Shown here piece after piece: positions 1,491-36,990 of a stretch of DNA of 64,000 bases (position 1 is the first letter of the stretch; each line of letters begins with the position of its first letter). Both the position numbers and the translations under genes were made by a program. Source of the stretch: Iphione sp. A-MEVVRFRX5 (Eukaryota); contig OZ320323.1 in NCBI GenBank assembly GCA_976226885.1, forward strand, positions 25,978,001-26,042,000, read 5' to 3'. Below the pieces are notes generated by a model. It did not search any database and was not told the DNA's origin. It was given only the letters and a program-made list of their open reading frames with translations.

Positions 1491-1980
1491 AATGGGCTTA
1501 GATTCAATAGAAAAAGTATGCTATCCTACAGTTGATATAGATATATAGATATGTGCAATATGAATAAATTTAGTCTCTGTCTGAAGAAGTCAAAGTACTT
1601 TCAAGAAGAATCGGCAGGAAACTGGAAGAACCTGCTATGGGAGAACATGGTGAAGCTGGTTATAACCTACATTAGGGAAATGTTCGTAGGAGCTTAACAG
1701 TTTATAGGAATACACATATGGAAAGATATGGCCAGTCCAAATTGAAGGATGGCAGTTTTAGGATCAGTTTACATGACATTCCACTAAATTCTACAAGATA
1801 TGTTGATGATGAACTCACTTCTGTCTGTTTTAATCACCATTTTTTGCGGACATGAAGGGTCCCTCGGTACAAGGAAACTGCTGATTTTTTTTTGAACTTT
1901 TATTTATCCTGGCAACATATTGAAGCCAGCCATAATTACTGCATTGACATTGATTCGAGAATGTACATATATAGATCTAC

Positions 1981-2041
1981 TATTTACACTATATACAATA
2001 TATACACTATTTACAGATATAAAGTATATACACTATATACA
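1981..2041 (-). repeat. 9-bp-period microsatellite made of six UGUAWAUA motifs (Pumilio response element consensus) in the LINE B 3'UTR
   Basis: TATWTACA on the + strand at 1981, 1990, 1999, 2008, 2025 and 2034; a seventh copy at 2389. Confidence 0.75.
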
Positions 2042-2341
2042 ATACGCATGATGAACATTTGTCCCTATACAAAGTAATATATATATATATATAGATCTTT
2101 ATTTATACTGGTTTTCCTCATACATAAAATGCATTTGCTACCAGTTGTAAATACAATATGATAGAACTTAAATCTAGTTATCTGACTAAAATTCCAAATA
2201 TATTGTGCGAACATTCCAGCCATGTCTGCCCCCTATATCTATCTCCATTTCTTCTACAGTGATCCGGGTACAGGGAGTTGAGGTTTGCGAATAATAGTCA
2301 CCTATTCTTGGTTACATATCATTTTGATAAGTATTGTTTAA

Positions 2342-2691
2342 ATGATCACATCATGTCACTTTATGTATCACTCACCCTAGTATTCGCTTATATACAGTCA
2401 TCTAGATAGGATATAATGCAGTATTTACTGTAGATGATCACATCATCTCATAACAATATAAATATACTAGGGGCAGCTCTAACTACATAGTTCTTCTAAA
2501 CATTTCACCTAGAATTGAGTTTGATATTTATGCAACGATCACATCATGCATATTTAGACATTTCATTACATTGGTACAATAATTTCTATTGATTCTTGTC
2601 CCTCTGAGTCAATATTTGACACGATCACATCGTGCAAGTGTGACCATTTATTCTCTGTCTGTGTGAGATTATGTAATGATCACATCATACA
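2342..2691 (-). promoter_or_regulatory. Five dispersed stem-loops (core GAU-GUG-AUC) in the LINE B 3'UTR; putative cis-acting RNA elements
   Basis: GATCACATC cores at 2344, 2436, 2537, 2623 and 2678, each in a 5-7 bp inverted repeat with compensatory flanks, separated by unrelated AT-rich spacers. Confidence 0.7.
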
Positions 2692-2773
2692 AGCCTCATT
2701 CTAAAGTTAATACATACATATGTAACACGAGCAAGCTTATACAATCAGCTTGTATTACAATTGATTACATTAC

Positions 2774-5599
2774 TTATGGTACCCTCCAGTTGCTTCTTAT
2801 CTGGGCCCTGCTTCGAATTCTTTTCCATAACGCCTTCATTTCTTTTTCATTATAGTTAGTTTCAGTTGGACTCAAACTACCCCAGATTTGCTGGAAATTA
2901 TACGTTAGTGTATTTCTAAAAGCTTCCTTCTTGGGCCATACAATATTAAGTCTACGTCTTCTTGAGGATCGGAGTTGCCTACGATTTGTTACATTACCCT
3001 CTATTTCCATTTTATCCCTATTAATAATATAACCTATCCTCAGAGTACTGGACTTAATATTCCCACACAGTTCAGATTTAATTTCATCTCTACTTGGGCA
3101 TAATCCTGCATCTCCAAATGCACACCGGTAAACCGCCCGTCTTAAGGTCACTAGCTTTTCCATTTTTATTCCGGTCTTTTTCACTAATACATAGTTACCG
3201 TAATCTATTATTGGCAATACCATGGTTTTCGCAATCTTAAAAGCCACTTCTTTATTAATATATTTCCTTATGATCTTGAAATGCCTTAATTTTGAGTATC
3301 CAATTCGAAGTAAGCTAGTCATGTATGGTTGCCACCTAAGTCTAGAATCTATCAATACTCCTAAATATTTAAAGCATGTTACTTCCTCCAACTTCTCACT
3401 GCCTAACTTAATAATTTGTCCTCCTGTTTTTATCGTCTTCCCAAATTTCTGTATTTTTGTTTTCTTTATATTTATCAATATTTTATTACTATAGGCCCAA
3501 CTGTTCACATTATTTAAGTCATCCTGTAGGTGTGCAAATGCAGTGTGATTCTGTCTAGCAATACTTATTAGGACCACATCGTCTGCATATATTATACACC
3601 TACTGTGCATGAGACTTTTTGGTAAATCGTTAATAAACAACAAGAAGAGAAGTGGGCCCATAATAGAACCCTGCGGCACACCACATTTAATGCTCACAGC
3701 TTCTGATACCGCCCCACCTATTTTAGTGATCTGGTACCTGTCATGTAAGTAGTTTTCCATCCAAGGCATTAGTTCCCCCAATCCTAGCGCTCTACATTTC
3801 TGAAGTATTATATCATGTGACACCGAATCAAATGCCTTAGAGAAATCTATATAACAGGCAACTACTTCTAAATTGTCATTCACGGCATTGCTGATTATAT
3901 CCACCATCGTATATATTGCAGTATCAGTCCCTAAACCTTTCCTAAACCCATGTTGAGAGGTTGAAAATAATTTATTTGTTTCCAGGTAATCTGTTATTCT
4001 TCTACAAACGATCTTTTCCATAATTTTGGATATGATAGGTAGCTGACTAATAGGTCGATAGTTATTCAAGTCAGTTTCTTTACCACTTTTATATAATGCT
4101 GTTACAGTCGCGGTTTTCCACACTACTGGTATATCACCGAGTGTTATACTTTCGTTTAATATCTCACATATTTCTGGCAACAACACCAATATAATTTCCT
4201 TCCATATCCACGTTGGGATGTCTGCTAGCATGCTTGCCTTGTTATTGGGTATACTTTTCACGATCTCAATAATTTCTTGTAATATTAAAGGTGAATGCTT
4301 GTAGCTTGTGCCTACCCTTGCTAACGGAATAAAATGCATATTTGACCCTATACTCTCAGCCACCCTAGCTCCAATACCTACGAAGTGGCTATTAAACCTA
4401 TTAGACATTTCCACAATATCTAAGCCAAATACTGTGCTAATGTCCATATGGTCTGAACCATAACCTAATTCATTCTTTATAATTTTCCAGAATTTCTGAG
4501 GATCACTGCGTGTATTTAACAATGTGTTCGAGATATATCTCCTTCTCAAAAATATCCCTGTCCTCTTCACCCTTCCTGTCAGGATCCTGGCTATGAGTCG
4601 GTCCTCTACTAGCCCAGATTTCTTATAGCGTTTTATAGCCTGATGTTTTGATCTTATCAAATCTAGATAGTCCCCTGTTACCCATATGTTCGTTTTAGCC
4701 CTCCTTCTACATCTCTTTTTAGTACATAACTTTTCAATCATATTCTTAACCCTGTTGTACAGTATCTCCCATTTTGTCGTTACATTGTCGGTTGCGTACA
4801 AATCATACCAATCTAAGTTTCTCAGTCTCCCACGCATTTCCACTATATCAATGGAGTTATAATCTACATATTCTATCATTTTCAATGTGTTAGGTATTTT
4901 ACTTCTAGTGATCAAAATGCACTCTACTATATTATGGTCACTTATTGTTCCATCTAACACATCAACATATATATTCTTATTAATATTCGTCACACATAAA
5001 TCTATAGTACTTGAGGAGTCTCTTGTTATCCTCGTAGGTTGGGATACCAACTGCCTTAGGGCGTTCCTACAGCAGAACTCACTTAATTTATTCTTGACGG
5101 AACTTCCTTTTATCCAGTCAATATTTAAGTCTCCAAGTATGATAAACTTTTTGTTAATATTTGCTAATTTATTACGATCTATAATTGTCTGCAGTATATT
5201 TATTGCTTCATCTACCGCACCACTCGGTGGTCTATATGTTGCAATCAGGGTCATTTCATATCTTGGAAGAACTAATTTTAATGTACAATATTCTAAATCC
5301 TCTGTTATAGCAGTATCATTTTCGAGTACCTCATATGTTAACCAAGGAACATTACGTATATATACCAATATGCCCCCACCCCTCTTATATATTCTATCCT
5401 TCCGTATTATACTATATCCAAACTTACTAAACAGTTGAGTAGGATAGGAAGGTATTAGCCACGTTTCACTTAATATCAACACGTCTGGACACAACTTACT
5501 AAATAATACATCAAATTCTTCTCTCTTACCTTGTACACTTCGGATATTCAGATGATATATACTCATCCCACCTGTACCATGATCAGTCATCGTTTCCAT
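2774..5599 (-). CDS. LINE ORF2 protein, 941 aa: APE endonuclease + reverse transcriptase (CR1/L2-like, no RNase H or CCHC seen)
   Basis: Endonuclease motifs HLNIRS, LSETWL, YRPP, GDLNID, PTR...IDL, SDH; RT motifs NYRPISQLP, QHGFRKG, DFSKAFDSV, GVPQGSIMGPLLF, YADD, KYLGV. Uninterrupted frame. Confidence 0.97.
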   Translation of the reverse strand: METMTDHGTGGMSIYHLNIRSVQGKREEFDVLFSKLCPDVLILSETWLIPSYPTQLFSKFGYSIIRKDRIYKRGGGILVYIRNVPWLTYEVLENDTAITEDLEYCTLKLVLPRYEMTLIATYRPPSGAVDEAINILQTIIDRNKLANINKKFIILGDLNIDWIKGSSVKNKLSEFCCRNALRQLVSQPTRITRDSSSTIDLCVTNINKNIYVDVLDGTISDHNIVECILITRSKIPNTLKMIEYVDYNSIDIVEMRGRLRNLDWYDLYATDNVTTKWEILYNRVKNMIEKLCTKKRCRRRAKTNIWVTGDYLDLIRSKHQAIKRYKKSGLVEDRLIARILTGRVKRTGIFLRRRYISNTLLNTRSDPQKFWKIIKNELGYGSDHMDISTVFGLDIVEMSNRFNSHFVGIGARVAESIGSNMHFIPLARVGTSYKHSPLILQEIIEIVKSIPNNKASMLADIPTWIWKEIILVLLPEICEILNESITLGDIPVVWKTATVTALYKSGKETDLNNYRPISQLPIISKIMEKIVCRRITDYLETNKLFSTSQHGFRKGLGTDTAIYTMVDIISNAVNDNLEVVACYIDFSKAFDSVSHDIILQKCRALGLGELMPWMENYLHDRYQITKIGGAVSEAVSIKCGVPQGSIMGPLLFLLFINDLPKSLMHSRCIIYADDVVLISIARQNHTAFAHLQDDLNNVNSWAYSNKILINIKKTKIQKFGKTIKTGGQIIKLGSEKLEEVTCFKYLGVLIDSRLRWQPYMTSLLRIGYSKLRHFKIIRKYINKEVAFKIAKTMVLPIIDYGNYVLVKKTGIKMEKLVTLRRAVYRCAFGDAGLCPSRDEIKSELCGNIKSSTLRIGYIINRDKMEIEGNVTNRRQLRSSRRRRLNIVWPKKEAFRNTLTYNFQQIWGSLSPTETNYNEKEMKALWKRIRSRAQIRSNWRVP

Positions 5600-6039
5600 T
5601 TACAAACATCATCGGAGGCAGATCGGCTGGAGATGCACACATTTCAAATGGATAATCGATTACCAGTGTTACCTGTGGAACAAAACTCACAACACCGGTT
5701 ATCACCTCATCGTACAAATAACCACAGGACAATGTTATCATAAAAAATGTTACATTAATCTTTAAATACATATCTCTATCTATAGTCAAATATATTATAT
5801 TATTTATATTAGTAATTGGCTGCCACATATAGTAGCCAGGCCCATCCCGACGGCGTTTAGTACACATATATATCAGATTACTCAAAAACTACACATCAAA
5901 CAATATTCATATTTCATTTAGTGCACTTACTGGTGGGTGTTAAAGTAGAAGAGTGAAGACGTGCGCAATAGAACATAACCTTAAGTTTATTCTGCCGAAT
6001 CCTAACCCTAGGTCATATAATGGTATTCTAATAGCATTG

Positions 6040-6410
6040 TGATTTAGATCACAAAATCAATTACACAATAACCTAGCAAAGTACGTTCTATCAAATATTA
6101 TGATGAATAATATTAAAATTAATATATATCCATGTATATACTCCGAAAGAAAAGCATCACATGTAATGTATTAGTTAAATAAATAAATCAATACACTATA
6201 AGGATCACATCCAAAGTAGCCATATTATGTCATATTATGAGAACTGTATTAATCCCTTTCTATTCAATTAAGCTCACATCAATTAGCATGTTTTCAGCAA
6301 TAGAGAACTTTATTTATATAGCAGCTTTCACATAGGATCACATCCATTTATATCATCTAACAACTAACTAATTTTAACCACTAGGTAGTATAATCATGGA
6401 TCACATCCAG
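6040..6410 (-). promoter_or_regulatory. Second cluster of the same hairpin (GGAU-GUG-AUCC x3 plus three degenerate copies) between the esterase ORF and ORF2
   Basis: GGATCACATCC at 6202, 6335 and 6398; degenerate copies near 6040-6059, 6154-6164 and 6266-6284; minus-strand AATAAA at 6309-6314 and 5986-5991. Confidence 0.65.
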
Positions 6411-6524
6411 TTCCAGTAACAATTAACAGTGGCTCTAAGCTAGCATACAAATGTTATCTCTGTGTTCTACCCATGTATACAAAATCTCACAGGCATGACG
6501 CAGCGCAGGTAGGAGTACATTTTT

Positions 6525-7205
6525 TCACCAACGGTTGCCATAGATCAGTCGGGTCAGTGCATTAATAATTTTCTTCACTGCTTTTATTTTCCAGGCGACT
6601 CTCAAATGGCATCCATCACGAAGCCTCGCCAGGCGGTGATGCCATCTCCCCCCATGACGTGTATGTATCACAGCATTCACCCATGGGGTTGGGATGCCAA
6701 AGTATCTATTCATAATCATTATACGTTGGTTTACCAGAACAATGGCATCAAACAACATTTCCTGAATCCGTCTGGTTTCAGTTCCACCACGGTATCCATT
6801 GATATGGTAATTATACGTGGCATAGTCCAGGCAAAAGATAGTGGAAAAGACAACAATACTAAACGGATACCGAGATTGTATGGCATACCTACACTGCCAA
6901 AGAGTTCTTTCAATTTCATTCGCAGTGTCCTCAGCAGAACTGTATCGTGGAACAACATACCTCGTACGTCTTCCATCCTGGTTTGCACAGCGGAACATCT
7001 GCGTCACATTGTTGCCGCCACACAACACAACGATGATAGATGGATAGGGATCAAAACTGTCCCATATAATATGGCTTGTCAGTGTTTCCAAGGTAGCTCC
7101 AGGATAGCTCCTCACATGGATATTCCAGCCGTGTCTTGCAAAAATGTTCTCCAGTCCTCCACCATGGCTGGAGGAGAACAAATAAATGAAATTATCCACA
7201 GACAT
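6525..7205 (-). CDS. SGNH/GDSL-family hydrolase (esterase), 226 aa, stand-alone middle ORF of LINE B
   Basis: Block I YLFSSSHGGGL, block II SYPGAT, block III VVLCGGNNV, block V RDGCHL in canonical order and spacing. First ATG at 7205 (the track starts at GTG 7235). Confidence 0.85.
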   Translation of the reverse strand: MSVDNFIYLFSSSHGGGLENIFARHGWNIHVRSYPGATLETLTSHIIWDSFDPYPSIIVVLCGGNNVTQMFRCANQDGRRTRYVVPRYSSAEDTANEIERTLWQCRYAIQSRYPFSIVVFSTIFCLDYATYNYHINGYRGGTETRRIQEMLFDAIVLVNQRIMIMNRYFGIPTPWVNAVIHTRHGGRWHHRLARLRDGCHLRVAWKIKAVKKIINALTRLIYGNRW

Positions 7206-7338
7206 GACAATATGCAAAAACACGTGTAGGCACACTACTCAGGGCAGGGCTAGTACCGAACCGATATTCGCTGTATATAGTCAGCTCAGAGCGTTCGGAA
7301 ACCCACATGCCTGATCTCATGGTAGTGCGTCCATCACA

Positions 7339-8986
7339 TTATAGATCAGCTCGTAGTTTGTCTCTCACTTTCTCCAGAAGTTTCCCAGTCCAATTCTCCC
7401 CTGGGTAGCTGGCATTCGTTATCTGTTTCGAGTTTTTCGGTACACCAGCTCCCCAGAAACGATTCATGGTTCCTTCCACTAAGTGGCGTTTACCCGAGTT
7501 TAGGAGTACCACCCTCGATTCCTTAACCTGTTTGAATTTACAGATTAGAATCTCCTCCATATATGATTTTTTTTAAGCTATCCCACTTAACTATCTTTGG
7601 GAGCTCGGTTCGGATTTTCTTTAGGTCTTTATAAGCTACTGTTCTTTTTGCAATCGACTCCTTAGACTTGATTCCAGCAGCACGACATTTAGCAAAGGTG
7701 TACGCTTGCTCTACGCTTTGGAACTTCTCATCACCCCATGTAAAGCTACATTTGTAGAGGTTTGATAGCGCATTAGTTTCACCAGCAAAACTCAACGGAC
7801 GATACGTTGATGGTAGTTCATAACTACTTGATGCAGCACCAATCATCGGTTGGGTGTCTTCAATCGGCAGATGCTGACTACACTCATCCTCAGCTTGAGT
7901 AGAAGTTGTTGTTTCAGAGTCCATATCTACATCAATCAAGGCTTCATCAATTTTTGACAACTCCGATACTCCATACCACGTATCATTCACTTTAATTCTG
8001 TTATGTCTAACCATCGTGATCACATCAGGATGGTTTTCTTTGATACTTCTTGCAGTCTTACGCAACTCAAACTGGTCATTGCGCTCCTTGGTCGTCAGAT
8101 CAGAATTAATCCAAATTTTCTTATTTGCAATCTTGGATTTTGATCTCATTATCTCTATCTTCTTAGCATTTCGCATCAACCTGACAAATACCGCTGGTTT
8201 TGATGCATCTCGCTTGGCTATTCTATATGCCTGATCTATATCAGTATCTTCTAGTTCAATACCGATATCATTGATAAGGTCAACAACTTTCTCAATCACA
8301 TCTTCCTTGTCACTGAGCTCCAGTCCCTCTATATAAATATTGTTGGAGCGCATTCGTTTGTCTAGTTTTTCAAATTCACCATGTGCTGATATTGGGACTT
8401 TCTGTGCTTTTACTTGTTCCATCTCACGCTTCAGTTGATCATTCTCAAGCCGCAAAGTAGATACATCCTTTTCAAGATCATTGATTCTTTGCATGTTCTT
8501 TCCAATCAACTCATTATGATCCGCCAGTTGTATGGAAATTCCTTCCATTTTGGTCTGAAGAACCTTACACTCGCCTTCCATCTTACTCTGTAAGACCTTA
8601 CATTCACTAGCAAAGCACTCTTTTAACTCATTTTTACTGTTCTCATTTTGCTTCAATATGTCATTCAAAATCTTTTTTAACATAAATACATCTCCTTCAT
8701 CATCACCTAGCAGTTGCAGCTCTGTTAGTGGGCTATTCGGTTTTTTCCTCTTTTTTGACTCCAAATCCTTTGGTGTATCTGGTACATCTGATGATGATAA
8801 TACCATATCAGGTGAACTCATGGTACCAGGCTTATCCTTCACTAGAAAGTCCTTTATACTAGTCTGTCCACACTTAGTGGTAGTTTCCGAACACTCCTCA
8901 CCCTGCGACTGACCCTTCGTGTCCACGCTGACCGCTTGAGTGACCCCAGAGGTCGTTACCCCCTCTATCCCCTGCGCTGTATCCAT
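7339..8986 (-). CDS. LINE ORF1 (coiled coil, RRM, CTD) fused to a C-terminal NADAR/YbiA-like domain; one extra A in the A8 run at 7567-7574 splits it (about 548 aa if restored)
   Basis: Coiled coil, then RSNNIYIEGL, DIDQAYRI, KIWINSDLT (L1-type ORF1 RRM/CTD motifs). Then LSNLYKCSF..FQSVEQAY..AK..W and, after the +1 shift, SYMEEILICKFKQ..LLNSG..LVEG..FWGAG..YPGENWTGKLLEKVR, matching the NADAR pattern. Confidence 0.85.
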
Positions 8987-9367
8987 GCCTTTGGTCTATT
9001 TATACATAAGAGGGTTCCTTGCTCAGTACACCTATTATCGCTGTTAACGTTATGCAACACAAAATCTATACCAAATTCTGCCTCACTACACACGTTTTAT
9101 CATATTCTTGATGGTCACTCTTGGTCTCGAGTATGTTTCCATATAACTAATCCCTACCAACACCCACCACAAGTGCACATACCTTGAAATAATATGCCCG
9201 TCGGGACACACACCGGCTCGCACGTCCTCACTCTGTGACCGCCATAAAAGATCAAAACAATGTGTCGAAAAACAGGTCAGACAAATAGTATAATAAGCAG
9301 TATGAGACCAAATCTAGATAGCAGGCTAGATATAACAATCCTCATGATACCTTCCAGTTTTCACTGG

Positions 9368-12200
9368 TCAAACGATGAAACAATTCCTGTTTAATGTTAC
9401 GTTTGAAGATCTTTTTTCTATTACCTTCAGATTGTCATTCAGATGGTTCCATAATTTTAATGCAACATAGGTCGGGTTCAGTTCAACGCTCGCCTTTTTG
9501 GCCAGAATGAATGGTAGGGAAGTCTTTCTGAATCTAAATTTTTGTTTTAACTCAATATAGGCTGAAAATAATTCTTTATGAAAAACTGACAAGCAGTAGT
9601 ACTGACTTCTCAATTCTAATGGTAAGATATTTAGAGCCTTTCAGAGGGAGTAATAGTCACTGCTGTAATCACCTTTTGCTAATCTCATGGCCTTAAGTTG
9701 CTGCTTTTCAAGTTTTTAACAATTCTGTTGACTTAGAAGCATGGATACAACCGATACCATAGTCTAATATCGGTACCAAAACAGTTTTCAGAACTTGGAT
9801 AGCAACTTTACGGTTTATAAATTTTGAATGTCTGATCATGTGCATAATAGAATAAGTTTTCTGTACTTTCTTATTTATCTCATTTTTCATGTTCAGATTT
9901 GGGTCCAGAATCAAGCCTAAATATTCATATTGCTGCACATGTTTTATTGTTGTAGTGCCAGTTTTTATTTGCATTTGAAATTTACTATGTCTATGTCTAC
10001 TTCCTGAAAATACCATGCTTTCTGTCTTACTCAAATTCATTTTTATTCCATTTGCCTTGCACCAGTCATGAAGTAATGTAGCATCTTCTTCTTATCTTAA
10101 TGATATAGTGTTCAGGTCACTATGTGAATATAGGAGAATTGTATCGTCTGCATACATAACACTATGTGAATGTTTAAGTATTTTGATCCTATCATTAATA
10201 AATAGGGAACACAAAAGCGGACCCATTATACTTCCTTGTGGTACGCCAGATAGTAGGGGTAGGGGGTTTGAGATATAACTATCTATTTTTGTGGTTATTG
10301 ATCTATTTGTTAGGTATGATTTAAACCAAGGTAGTTCTGAGGAGAAACCCATTTTAATCAATTTTTGAGCAGTATTTTGTGTTGAATGCTATCAAAAGCT
10401 TTTTGATAATCTACAAATATTGCCCCTACTATCTTTTACGTCTTTTCACGCGTTTATTTAACAGTATATCGGTTAGTATTTGAAAGCATTCCTAAATCTG
10501 TACTAATGTCCGAGCACTGACCAGATTTTCTGTTCCTTGTCAGGAGCTGTAGAATTGTATACGTATGTCTTAGATATAAATATTTCAAGATTATTTTAAA
10601 AGGTAGGGATCCAAAGGATGACACAGTATAGTACATTTCATTATGACTGGAAGTCAGTTTTTTTTGAACGGTAGTAGTTAAGCTAGTATATAATTGATAG
10701 AGAAATGTTATTTTTAAAGTCTGCCTTGTAACAATGAGTGGTTATTTTTACGTGTTTCTTATATATCTATAAGTAGTTCTAAGGAATTAGTTTTTTGTTA
10801 GTAGATAGCTTATTCTAGTCAGGGTGAAGACTGACTCTCTGCAAAAGAAAAATACTTGGAGGTTAATTACCAAAAAAACTGGGGCCATTATATATAGTTT
10901 ATATCAACTGGAAGAGACTTTGAGATAATTATCATATGTAATTAATTTCTAATGTATCCCTTTATCTATGTACAATTAACAGGGAATGTGTCCCTCTGAT
11001 GGCAATAACTTCAGATTAGCTGTAATTATCAGTTATTCTCTTAATTGAGTTGAGGTTCCCACCAATTAAAATGTCGTAGGCTTATTGCACAGATACTGAT
11101 ATAATTATAAGACTAGATTTGTTGGATGCAAGATACTTCTGTTCGCTTAAGTTTTATGAGATAAAGGTGATAGCACCGACTATATACGTCTTTAATGTAG
11201 GAAGTAGCTTACAAGTAATTTACTACACATATTTTCGAGAGTTTTTAAGTTCATAATGAGAGGGTGGGCTTCCTCACCCTCTGCCTGTAAAGTGTCCAGT
11301 ATTTCTATCTTTGACAGTATGCATGCAGATAAACCTATGCCTCAAGTCCACACCACGAACTTGTTTTCATGGTTCTCATACGACGATTAACCTCTTTTAA
11401 CAAGGTCAATCATTGACATTCATATAAAATACAAGTAAGCTTAATACATCATATATCAAAGAGAAGGAGTTTTAGTGTGATACAATGATTTCCGCATTGG
11501 GGCTGATTACGAGGGAAAGAGAACAGTTACGACAGAAAGGAAAGAGCTGGACGATTTCTGTTATTAGGTTATCTATTAAGATAGTTTATGGGAAAATATC
11601 TCTAGGGCTTGAATAGAAACTCTTATCTGGGGTATCTGTTAAGATGTTTGGTTGTTGGGAGTTAATTTTGAATTGAATTTGAATATGTCATTGAGCATAA
11701 GTTTCCTCCATACAAGGATGTTTTTTCAAACTACACTCTTGCGCTAAAGCTTATGTCTAATTTTATTAAGCTATCTTCATCAGCTGATCGTTCCTATGAA
11801 AATATTTGTCTACGTTGAAATTCTGGCTTCCCGAGATGTCTTGTTGGTAGTCTATTTCATGGTGATGCACTCTGGTAGAAGTAGCTTTTCTGGTAACAGG
11901 TAACATAGAACTGGTTTCCTCCAAGCAACCACGGCAGCACCTCCTGCTCACGTAATAATACTGCCTCTTCTCTTAATACAGCGCTGTATTGACAGTAGGT
12001 CATACATACATAAGTCTGAGAAATACCATATTCTCTGATCAACTGTTCGTATGCCATTAACCTTCATGAAGTTTACCACCCTTTCCGTTAGGGTATGAAT
12101 GTCAAGGAGGCATTTCCTGACCACACACAAGAAGTGGCCTCTTTTTGCACCCATTTCGAAGACCAGACATAAGTGTACATGTAATGTAAGTTGTTAATCT
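9368..12200 (-). mobile_element. Decayed LINE copy C (ORF2 endonuclease and RT remnants)
   Basis: Broken frames with SGVPQGSIMGPLL, YADDT, YEYLGLILD, PILDYG and KLWNHL; endonuclease-like remnants near 11750-12150. Many stops and frameshifts. Confidence 0.85.
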
Positions 12201-30427: not shown

Positions 30428-32059
30428 TTAACTTATATATGGTCTCTTCAAGATGTCGGCAATGGTCTTCTGCTTGCACTTCTTCACTGCTGCCATCTCT
30501 GTTTTCTCCAGGATAGCCCGAAGAGAAGATACAATGTCAGTGTTGCCTTGGTCCTCCCAGAAGGACACAGCCCAGTCCAGGCCTTGTCTCACTTGCTTGA
30601 TGGTAACAGGCTCCACATGTTGCTCTTCCTCCTCCTCTTCTTCCTCCTCTTTCCTCTTGCGCTTGGCTACCAGCTGGATGATGCTCTGCTCATCCATCTC
30701 TCCTGATGTAGGCTCCTGGGAGTCACAGGACACATAATCATCTGCTGGTCCTGTGTCCTCCCCTTGCTTGTCCTGGAGGTCTTGCAGCAGTGTCCTCAGC
30801 TGTGAGAGCGGGGTGTTGTCCTCTTCCTCTGTAATGTCCTCTTCTTCCTCTGTGGCTGGACTGGTGGTATCTGGCAGGATGTCAACATGCTTCCAACACT
30901 TGGCAATGGTGGTGCTGGAGACAGCCTGCCAGGCCTCATGGATCATCAGGATGGCCCTCCTGACATCTGTGGTCTGGGGTTTACCTTACTCAATACAGGT
31001 CAGGAAGTGCCTGATCAGCCTCCTCCTGTACTGTGCCTAGAAAGAGGCAATGATGCCTCCATCCAAGGGCTGCAGATGACTGGTGGTGTTTGGAGGCAGG
31101 TAGATGATCTTCAGGTTCTTGTAGTTCTTGGTTGTCTTGTGGCTGGCTGCATTATCACAGAGGATGACATATCACCTTTTCTGCCCTCTTGCTCTGTCAT
31201 CCAACTTCTTCAGGAGATCTTCCCACAGGGTTGAAGTCATCCAGGCTTTGGTGTTGTTTCTGTATGTAACATACATGGAAGGATCAAAGTCCTTCCCAAA
31301 ACATCTAGGTCTGGCTGACTTGCCAATCACAAAGGGCCTGATCTTCTCAGTCCCTGTGGCATTGCAGCACAATGCCACAGTCAGCCTGTCCTTGGACCGC
31401 TTCTCACCCTTCACTGGCCCTGTGGCAAGAGTGGCTCCTGGTTTCAGTCTGAAGAAGAGCCTTGACTCATCCACATTGAAGATGTCATCAGGATCATAAC
31501 CTTGTAGGAGAATCTTGATATCTTGCCTTCCTTCCCCTACAAGCTGGGCAGACACAGATGCAGCTTCACTATGGGTCTTGTACACCTTGATGTTGTTCCT
31601 CTGTCTGAATCTCTGGATCCAGCCCTTGCTGTATCCAAAGCTCTCATCCACTTGGAGCTCCTTGCCAAAGACCTTGGCCTTGTCCACCAGAACTTCATCT
31701 GACACCACTGCTCCTCCGGCCCTCATGTCATTGAACCAGAGGAGGAGGACCCTCTCCAGGTCAGCCTGTTTGGGACATCTAGCCCTGATATGGTTGCCCT
31801 CATCATCAGGCAGGGACAGCCAGTGGTCCTTTTTCTTGAAGATGTCTGTCAGGGTAGATTTCCCAACTTTGAAGCCAAACAGGGGAGAGAAATGCCCAAT
31901 GATGCCAATGAGGGAAGCAGTGGGGTGACTGGCCTTGTATTGACAGAGGAGCTTCTTCTGCTGGTTGGTGATGTTGGTTCTCCTTCTCTTAGCCTGTGGT
32001 TGAGACATGGTGTCTGTAGTTCTCTGGCGTGCTCTGGAGTGCTCTGGAGTGGTACTCAA
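30428..32059 (-). pseudogene. pogo/Tigger transposase (CENP-B-type HTH + DDE_1, DD30D), inactivated by three in-frame stops
   Basis: HTH region, WFNDMR, SKGWIQRFRQR, NVDES, CCNATG, IGKSARPRCF, NTKAWMT. Reading through TGA (31172), TAG and TAA gives YVILCDNAASH..YLPPNTTSHLQPLDGGII in frame with 30428..30946. Confidence 0.92.
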
Positions 32060-32145
32060 GGTAGAGTGACTGACCAGTGCTGACCACCTCCCTTATATCC
32101 TCCCATGGGTCAGGAAAACACAGGACAATGCAGGAAAACGCCCCT

Positions 32146-34746: not shown

Positions 34747-36990
34747 TTTTTGTTTTTTTTTATTATCTTTATTTATCCTGATACTGATATACATAGAAGT
34801 ACAAATTCTCAGGTCTTTGTCATTCAACATATCGTCACTTCTTCACTATTTACAGATGATGAGTATTATACATATGTAGGTGATATGGTATGATGAAACG
34901 GGCTATAAACCTTTAATACAATACTATATTTTAGCATACTAACTTGTATTCTATGGCAATTTTCTTCAGATTTTTTGTTATATGGTAAATGTAGCCTTGA
35001 TGTTTGTCATCTTCCCATGACCTAAGCACCTCCAGACATAGCCCAGGATGGTGCCTGGTCAGTTCTAGCTCAAGACAATTTGAAGCATTAAGCATTAGTT
35101 ACCCTCTTTTGTTGCTTACCGTGTATTTAACAGACTTAGGTTCCCCTACAGACGGAGCCCAGTATGAGAACCTTAAAGAAGTCTTTGCAGTTATTCTTTG
35201 TACCGCTTATTGCATGCTTTGCTTACAACGTTGTAGGAAGGCGTTTCTTTTTAGACTCATTAGCTTGGATGGAAGGGAGTTCCAAAGTCTGCCTCCAGCA
35301 TAATTGATGCTTCGTTTAAAACTCTCATATTTTGGCCTTGTTACATGAAAGAGCGGCTTCATGTCATTTCTCGTGCGCTCAGATTGGCCAAGCACAGTTT
35401 CCCCTGAGATATGCCTGTTGTACATTATCCTAAGCAGACTCAAATTACGCCTAATGGATAGCGTCGGTAAGCCACATCTAGCTCTGGCTGTACTCGATCG
35501 TAATGCAGGACCCCATATTGTCCGTTTTGTTATAGAGTCTGGACATCCTTTGGAAATTATGTGATCTGTCATCGGTTAGTAGGTAGATGCCATATTCTAT
35601 TACTGGAAGTATTAGTGTCTTGACTAGGAGTATGCGATCTCTTATGGGTAATAGTGATCTGATCTTCCTAATGTATAGTAGTTTGTGTCCCACCCTCTTG
35701 ACTAAGGTGTTAGTGTGCATATTATATGTGAGGGCACTATCTATCATAACCCCTAAGTATTTGTACTTGGTAACATTTTCTAGACAATCACTGCCAAATT
35801 TCAATGTTGGGGGGTGTCTGATTGGAAATCTATAGCGATACCAAATGCACTTACACTTTTCCGGGTTTATCTGTATCTTATTGTCAAGGGTCCATTTCAT
35901 TATGCGTTCAACGTCAGATTGTACTCTAGCAGCCAGTTCTTTTATATGGGTGCCAGTCGTTACTACTACCATGTCGTCCGCATATAGTACCATCCTAGAG
36001 TGTTTACATACAGATACAATTGGGTTTATGAATAGTGTGAACAATAGTGGGCCCAAAATTGAGCCCTGTGGCACCCCGCATGTTATGTTCTTGGGAGAGG
36101 AGATATGGCCATTAGTCTTAGTTCTTTGCATTCTTCCTGACAGATAATTCTGAAACCATGGTAGGTTGTCTATTACTCCATAGTCATATAATCTTTGTAT
36201 GATTACATCATGACTAATCGAGTCGAAGGCTTTTCGAAAGTCAAAGAAGACACTTACAACATTCTGTTTACAATTGAGGGCCATGTGCACCATATCTGTA
36301 AGTTTGCTAATGGCCAGGTCAGTTGAGAGTCCTCTTCGGAACCCAAACTGTACATCACTAAGAATCTTATTGACTTCCAAGAAATTATATAGCCTTGTAT
36401 GCACTAGCCCTTCAAGGATTTTTGCAGGGAGTCCTAGGACACTGATTGGGCGATAGTTGCCTATCGATGTTCTTTCACCAGCCTTAAGATCGGCGTGACC
36501 ACCGCACTCTTCCAGTCATTGTGGATAACTTGTTTAATGAATGACATGTTTATCAGACTCAAGAGCTGTGGTAAGCTACATAGTAAACATCTTTTCAGGT
36601 ACCTTGTCGGCAGTTCTTGATATCCTGATGGCTTACTTTCTTTTAAATTCTTGACAACTTCCACCAGTTCTAGTTCAGAAACAGGCGTTAGAGCAAACCG
36701 GTTGACCCCCCCTGTACATCTTGTATGGAAGTTACCCAACTTTTCTGCAATTTTGCTACCAATGTTAGTGAAATACTCATTGATCAGTTCTGGTACCTCT
36801 TTGCCTGATTTATCGACACCATCTAGATTAATTGTTATCTCTTGAGTGCCCTTACTTCCTAATCCAAGCAGGTTTTTCATCGTTGCCCAGAACTTGCTTG
36901 GGTCATCCCTGTTATTATTGAGGGCTCTCTTAATATACTCCCTTTTTTTTGTGGTTTATCAATCTCCGTGTCCTCCTTCTGGCCTCCTTT
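34747..36990 (-). mobile_element. 5'-truncated LINE copy E (RT domain, 3'UTR, A-rich tail) with three frameshifts
   Basis: DDPSKFW, NYRPISV, VQFGFRRG, DFRKAFDSI, GVPQGSILGPLLF, YADD, KYLGV, RLWNSL; tail ...CAGGATAAATAAAGATAATAAAAAAAAACAAAAA. Confidence 0.93.

Follow-up and report, generated by a model that had tools for sequence, protein, structure and literature searches.

The window, a stretch of 64,000 nucleotides from contig OZ320323.1 of Iphione sp. A-MEVVRFRX5, contains on its minus strand an APE-type non-LTR retrotransposon, with an ORF2 encoding APE and RT, an A/T-rich tail, 5'-truncated copies and no LTR. The insertion cut an unrelated, decayed LINE in two (halves at 9247 to about 10500 and 1885-2072, minus strand), and the tail half of this interrupted LINE matches many other loci. 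On the element strand the gene order is ORF1, a separate SGNH ORF (referred to below as the esterase), a 925-nt intergenic region and ORF2, with the following coding features:

2077..9245, minus strand: three-ORF APE-RT LINE, with the 3'UTR of an unrelated LINE as its target
7339..8986, minus strand: ORF1, with coiled coil, L1-type RRM-CTD and NADAR, fold predicted on the relative L146
6525..7205, minus strand: stand-alone SGNH-fold ORF of 226 aa, by predicted fold and conserved residues
2774..5599, minus strand: ORF2 of 941 aa, APE endonuclease and RT, intact, by domain matches

Elsewhere on the minus strand of the window are a Tc5/pogo-type DDE transposase (30428-32092), another RT fragment (35478-36515) and an APE fragment (891-1484). 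At least 150 related esterase ORFs, with 45-87 % identity, occur in the genome. A scan of metagenome contigs gave no relative. The family sample comprised 115 fetched stretches, 104 of which showed an esterase match and 94 a usable intergenic region, and 86 families were left once near-identical intergenic regions had been dropped. The nearest full-length relative of the window element, L033, served as alignment reference.

The window ORF1 is frameshifted near 7575, its open frame stopping at 7538. NADAR is present in all seven intact ORF1s of relatives that were scanned, and the model predicted for the ORF1 of L146 matches human L1 ORF1p and NADAR structures, while no further Pfam domains beyond APE and RT are found in ORF2. 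The middle ORF is a predicted SGNH hydrolase on the basis of its modelled fold (pLDDT 89.7; Foldseek GDSL/SGNH, E 4e-8) and its catalytic S, G, N and D-x-x-H residues, with S13, G36, N65, D197 and H200 kept in at least 95 % of 94 sequences. The protein is basic (pI 9.8) and better conserved than ORF2 (mean identity 54 % versus 41 %; esterase more conserved in 522/561 pairs). Neither the esterase nor its alignment gave a match in word-seeded protein searches, while a HMMER search gave 1192 unnamed clusters, the best 150 of which are mostly 200-240 aa; the ten that were looked up were without names. In the ORF1-esterase spacer a TTHCGAAY-like motif is found at 7293-7300 (minus strand), and such a motif lies 80-95 nt upstream of the esterase ATG in 40/72 families. 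Judged by eye, the spacer of several distant families (L198, L200, L203, L205, L207, L208, L212 and L215) shows a T-rich YAG acceptor in its place; a regular expression for acceptors, which was too strict a pattern, picked up 2/72. Esterase expression thus possibly follows two alternative routes across families.

Three exact copies of GGATCACATCC occur downstream of the esterase ORF, at 6202, 6335 and 6398, as had been noted in a sequence-only reading of this DNA, which wrote them as GGAT-CAC-ATCC; the correct reading strand is the minus strand, that of the element RNA, giving GAU-GUG-AUC. None of 5000 dinucleotide shuffles of the intergenic region reached three copies of this 11-mer, and none of 1000 yielded any 11-mer with at least four G+C in three copies. 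The hairpin features of the element are as follows:

6398..6408, minus strand: intergenic hairpin copy 1, GGAU-GUG-AUCC, with a 3' bulge
6335..6345, minus strand: intergenic hairpin copy 2
6271..6281, minus strand: decayed intergenic copy
6202..6212, minus strand: intergenic hairpin copy 3
6040..6060, minus strand: doubtful degenerate copy
8017..8027, minus strand: hairpin copy within ORF1, found in L033 too
2343..2687, minus strand: terminal array of five hairpins, closing pairs T-A, C-G and U.G

The same reading had credited two of the intergenic copies with the same bulge, which holds for the copy at 6398 and for no other in the window. The degenerate copy it placed at 6266 proves to be a decayed fourth copy, aligned to an intact counterpart in L033. 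By contrast, the one it placed at 6040 retains only the lower stem and has nothing matching it in L033, which makes it doubtful, and it was dropped as a conserved array member. The T-A and C-G closing pairs it reported for 3'UTR copies are borne out by the five terminal hairpins; one more copy of this type lies inside ORF1.

The intergenic array turns out to be conserved. In a comparison of 86 diverged families from the same genome, one array follows the esterase and another follows ORF2, with two to six intergenic copies in 57/58 nearer families; in several distant families no repeated array was called, while others have different stems and loops. The sense-strand unit is a stem plus Y(GUN)R, closed by U-A or C-G around G-U-N. 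Copies are concentrated in the untranslated regions (393 in 136 kb of UTR versus 15 in 203 kb of ORF2), and the paired-core pattern occurs 197 times genome-wide, versus 30 for the control. At least two hairpins lie behind 113/125 ORF2 ends of the clade, versus 0/23 ends of other LINEs, using a pattern that was itself derived from this clade. The pair next to the fixed 9-nt core is Watson-Crick in 172/184 intergenic copies (107 expected) and 194/209 terminal copies (119 expected), where the expectations follow from column composition and the counts are of copies, not of independent events. The inner pairs change in step (GGT/ACC, GAC/GTC, GTC/GAC and GAG/CTC, with G.U intermediates), and 45/64 of the non-AT/AT inner-pair cases are paired. 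A 3' bulge and lower stem are common in the 3'UTR copies (shifted pairs in 108 and 104 of 209; 68 and 56 expected), while in the intergenic copies this pairing is weak or lies further out. Its covarying stem and its confinement to the sense strand give good support to the hairpin as a selected RNA structure.

An explanation at the DNA level, with GAT-N3-ATC as a dyad site for a dimeric factor or with the copies as neutral local repeats, draws on the core being a short palindrome with a 3-nt spacer and on the flanks that copies in one array have in common. These flanks are unalignable between families, the stem letters change while pairing is kept, and sense copies outnumber antisense ones by 393 to 1. 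Furthermore, A.C closing pairs are depleted (2 versus about 12 expected) and G.U closing pairs are not, so that this explanation is barely credible. The suggestion that the closing pair distinguishes the internal from the terminal array fares no better. It is unlike between the two arrays in 12/40 families having both, in both directions, and is thus family-specific and not a general code; with G-C in both arrays in 25/40 families, such a code was ruled out.

Downstream of the array lie the signals that bear on the role of the intergenic region, including the minus-strand AATAAA motifs, both of which the sequence-only reading had located correctly:

6309..6314, minus strand: AATAAA inside the array, present in L033 too
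5986..5991, minus strand: AATAAA at the position common to the families, about 25 nt upstream of strand c' of the helices described below, candidate internal poly(A) signal
2077..2124, minus strand: terminal motif TGTATGA..CCAG..AATAAA with (TA)n tail, which the intergenic region is without

AATAAA is enriched just past the internal array (18/23, 4.0 expected; 54/86, 20.7 expected), sits past the last intergenic hairpin in 45/57 families, and lies upstream of helix strand d' in 18/23 versus downstream of it in 4/23. That the intergenic region may be a second 3'UTR, as had been proposed, agrees with the conserved array after the esterase stop and with this downstream enrichment, and the internal array is best read as a 3'UTR tag on a predicted short mRNA for ORF1 and the esterase. 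This RNA would likely be cleaved at the internal AATAAA. The terminal motif is found in 53/73 true 3' ends versus 0/86 intergenic regions, and the gap from the end of the terminal array to the terminal AATAAA is about 40-430 nt in the ends inspected. The signal that primes reverse transcription probably does not reside in the arrays, and the distinct terminal motif is favoured for this role. Among the 104 esterase loci, none showed a copy with a poly(A) end at the internal site; this would fit a predicted short RNA that carries the tags and lacks the likely priming signal, and is also expected if the internal site is unused. In L097 and L110, very distant three-ORF relatives with esterases 24-25 % identical, different repeated motifs of four copies each are found behind the esterase stop.

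The other role put forward for the intergenic hairpins was as part of an internal translation element, or IRES, for ORF2, and the region that holds them is the one long intergenic stretch preceding that ORF. However, the distance to the ORF2 His16 anchor is at most 400 nt for only 1/209 intergenic copies, in the window 19 ATGs stand between the last copy and ORF2, AATAAA usually intervenes, and the same unit is present after the ORF2 stop. An IRES function is accordingly very improbable.

ORF2 may instead be reached by splicing, for which the following features are relevant:

9177..9185, minus strand: predicted 5' splice donor, the intron start would be 9182
5673..5690, minus strand: predicted 3' splice acceptor, the intron end would be 5673, for an intron of 3510 nt
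9228..9245, minus strand: 5' mini-ORF of 5 codons
5583..5642, minus strand: 19-codon uORF, out of frame, overlapping the ORF2 start

A donor-like site is found at +55 to +85 from the element start in 31/35 elements, a range picked after inspection of the data, with the donor unclear in several families. ACTAAC, a candidate branch point, is about nine-fold enriched (17 in 6450 nt versus 21 in 70,275 nt) at 76-150 nt upstream of the ORF2 anchor, mostly in distant families and not in the window copy. A crude score for acceptors pointed to the anticipated interval in 32/86 families, with about 21 expected. RAGT recurs 10-16 nt upstream of the predicted acceptor AG, at 5683-5688 (minus strand) in the window and in relatives. 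Splicing of 9183 to 5672 is a reasonably probable source of ORF2p. The out-of-frame uORF overlaps the ORF2 start in 61/79 (28.7 expected), and a mini-ORF of 3-6 codons begins the element in 25/25 near families, where the motif used to find the element start contains the stop of the mini-ORF but leaves its frame free. A 5' start of ATGGC..GAGTGAGGACG with an early in-frame stop is common to LINEs with an ORF2 about 27 % identical (L093, L097, L098, L099, L100, L102, L103 and L104), and may represent an ancient mini-uORF or a promoter motif. A spliced leader-ORF2 retrocopy was found in 0/27 esterase-less ORF2 copies, about five of which break too near ORF2 to tell. None was found in the loci with the 5' motif that were inspected, about 38 of the 55 being distinct, or among 14 junction-pattern matches (0/14), using search patterns that cover only families keeping both motifs.

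The first 100 nt of the element are complementary to the region just downstream of the internal AATAAA, and the predicted helices involve:

9151..9244, minus strand: leader helix strands a (about 9244-9237), c (9235-9220), b (9218-9198) and d (9178-9151), predicted
5817..5967, minus strand: intergenic strands c' (about 5967-5950), d' (5950-5921), b' (5853-5833) and a' (5823-5817)

The paired strands are 3.3 kb apart and their predicted crossing corresponds to a pseudoknot order, with the order c'-d'-b'-a' found in 16/25 nearer families with a located 5' end. Across 77 elements, own leader-intergenic pairs score 57.6 versus 41.8 for mismatched ones. The own partner is best for helix b in 17/25 and for helix d in 19/25, while helix c showed no such family-specificity (own partner best in 5/25 only). 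The strands of helix d are 33 % identical between families, with pairing kept. In a mismatch-blind count, adopted since the simpler comparison is biased by base composition, there were 115 G.U pairs (59 expected) against 14 A.C pairs (12 expected), and an excess of the former without one of the latter points to pairing in the sense RNA. For the window copy, helices c, b and d have predicted duplex energies of -30, -35 and -41 kcal/mol. In 20/25, helix d begins no later than intron position +7, and a long-range fold that covers donor positions +5/+6 and starts about 25 nt past the AATAAA is tentatively seen as a switch favouring the full-length RNA. The esterase-less copies L004, L225, L244 and L252, among others, seem to start in or near the paired intergenic strands, which could reflect stalling of the RT or be a consequence of copy selection.

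Strong predicted helices behind a short 5' ORF also raise the prospect of a ribosome shunt on a single full-length RNA. Helix b follows the end of the mini-ORF after about 10 nt, and ribosomes would skip the looped-out domain of ORF1, esterase and array to land past a', where the sequence is UA-rich, with the pairing suppressing the internal AATAAA and the arrays acting as packaging tags on genomic RNA. This arrangement resembles the take-off and landing layout described for CaMV (PMC5902531), builds on a mini-ORF that is present also in far more distant LINEs, accounts for the missing spliced and short retrocopies, and retains cis-preference. The short uORF before a strong helix is there, but an AUG-poor path, which we infer a shunt to require, is not: the stretch that would be scanned contains 193 ATGs (153 expected) and is ATG-free in 6/86 (13 expected). 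The fixed donor, ACTAAC and AATAAA enrichment would, furthermore, be left unexplained, and a shunt, the main rival to the reading preferred here, is considered unlikely.

The preferred reading, to which we assign a probability of roughly 0.55 from sequence comparison, is that the element produces three RNAs. A short RNA comprising ORF1 and the esterase with the internal array would end at the internal AATAAA and have a hairpin-tagged 3'UTR, ORF2 would be read from a spliced leader-ORF2 mRNA with the terminal array, and a full-length RNA, favoured by the long-range fold, would carry both arrays and the terminal motif. The hairpin arrays would be protein-binding tags on the two 3'UTRs for RNP assembly. 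That the tags are read by a protein of the element itself, either ORF1p or the basic SGNH protein, which would gather the element RNAs into one RNP, is possible, though we put it at slightly less than an even chance. Counting against the preferred reading, the zebrafish LINE esterase is reported not to bind oligo(A) RNA (PMC3905857).

Two 3'UTRs are also compatible with the arrays being read by a host protein, such as a transport, decay or 3'-end processing factor, in which case their purpose would be localisation or stability control and not RNP assembly. The RNA of the I factor, also a LINE, has localisation stem-loops, the arrays here lie in AU-rich UTRs upstream of both AATAAA sites, and the Y(GUN)R theme is common to families. 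However, whole clades in one genome have other loops in both arrays (UGUUUA, CGUGG and UUUGA), the motif is missing from the other LINEs in this host (0/23, as above), and an Rfam covariance-model search of window positions 1900-9400 gave no matches at E up to 5. The Roquin CDE has a Y-R-Y triloop, the SAM-domain element a CNGGN pentaloop and PUF/CFIm elements a single-stranded UGUA; the loop here, G-U-G/A/U closed by U-A or C-G and with UGUA in a minority, breaks these rules, and the three were rejected as candidates. A host reader is thus distinctly unlikely. The loop types of the two arrays agree in 43/54 families, versus 23 when shuffled. On a tree covering 47/54 scored elements, with 9/86 elements without an intact esterase left out, loop co-evolution was not significant by independent pairs (p 0.5-1), and with too few such pairs co-evolution of the loops with an element protein is not established.

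Returning to the three-RNA reading, it bears on long-standing questions for LINEs, namely how ORF2p is made from a polycistronic RNA, how the ORF1p:ORF2p ratio is set and how an element chooses its own RNA. The textbook view is of a single transcript, with reinitiation and cis-preference. In this genome, signals for internal polyadenylation, splicing and long-range pairing persist in dozens of diverged families side by side, together with a repeated family-variable tag, such tags being a natural set of cognate and non-cognate pairs, and a LINE esterase may have gained an RNA-related job. A more elaborate conjecture, which we regard as unlikely, is a programme resembling that of complex retroviruses. 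By hiding the donor and the internal poly(A) site, the 3.3-kb pseudoknotted fold would decide which of the three RNAs is formed, RT would be made from the spliced mRNA under ATF4-like two-uORF control, and an element-encoded reader, possibly the basic SGNH protein acting like the RNA-binding OSK domain of Oskar, would hand RT in trans via the arrays to the full-length RNA. A LINE of this kind, with no cis-preference, would explain the absence of spliced copies.

The ATF4 leader combines a short uORF with an overlapping uORF, as does the present element. Stringent LINEs such as UnaL2 and ZfL2 have a single stem-loop adjoining the 3' tail. The present element shares with these a short family-specific RNA hairpin in a LINE 3'UTR (PMC5135761), but its hairpins number two to seven and lie hundreds of nucleotides away from the end, which is marked by a terminal motif of its own, and a further array occurs in the interior of the element. 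A 3'-terminal stem-loop of the UnaL2/ZfL2 type was rejected, with arrays 40-430 nt before the terminal AATAAA that recur internally without a tail. Sources on human L1 describe a SpORF2 mRNA in which a donor near the 5' end is joined to an acceptor before ORF2 and ORF1 is removed (PMC2896524), internal poly(A) signals that yield short RNAs (PMC2896524, PMC5860796), and splicing treated as inhibitory, with spliced copies (SpIREs) in existence (PMC5860796). The predicted donor near the 5' end, acceptor before ORF2 and internal poly(A) signal of the present element are similar. Unlike in human L1, these signals are kept in dozens of families, together with a long-range fold and a hairpin-tagged internal UTR, and a spliced copy was not found in the copies examined.

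The SGNH fold and conserved catalytic residues are shared with the esterases of CR1, L2 and RTEX, described as ORF1 domains (PMC3905857, PMC4120745, PMC13343379), and with the stand-alone GDSL ORF3 of bdelloid rotifer LTR elements (PMC5408684). Unlike in CR1, L2 and RTEX, the esterase here is a third ORF beside an L1-type, NADAR-bearing ORF1. A YbiA-type NADAR in ORF1 is likewise reported for Crassostrea gigas Tx1 LINEs (PMC12477816), a likeness in domain content and not in clade placement, and the consulted portion of that account does not mention an esterase ORF, splicing or hairpins. The short 5' ORF before a strong helix recalls the shunts of CaMV and RTBV (PMC5902531), and the sorting of spliced from genomic retroviral RNA relies similarly on tags present only in the unspliced RNA (PMC5035971). 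CaMV/RTBV, retroviruses and ATF4 differ from the present case, a non-LTR element in which 3.3 kb separates the paired strands and a crossing of these is predicted. Searches of the openly searchable literature gave no paper on such arrays or such pairing, though Repbase may have an entry for the family. Among the LINEs compared here, the present element stands apart by its hairpin arrays at two sites and by the predicted leader-intergenic pairing.
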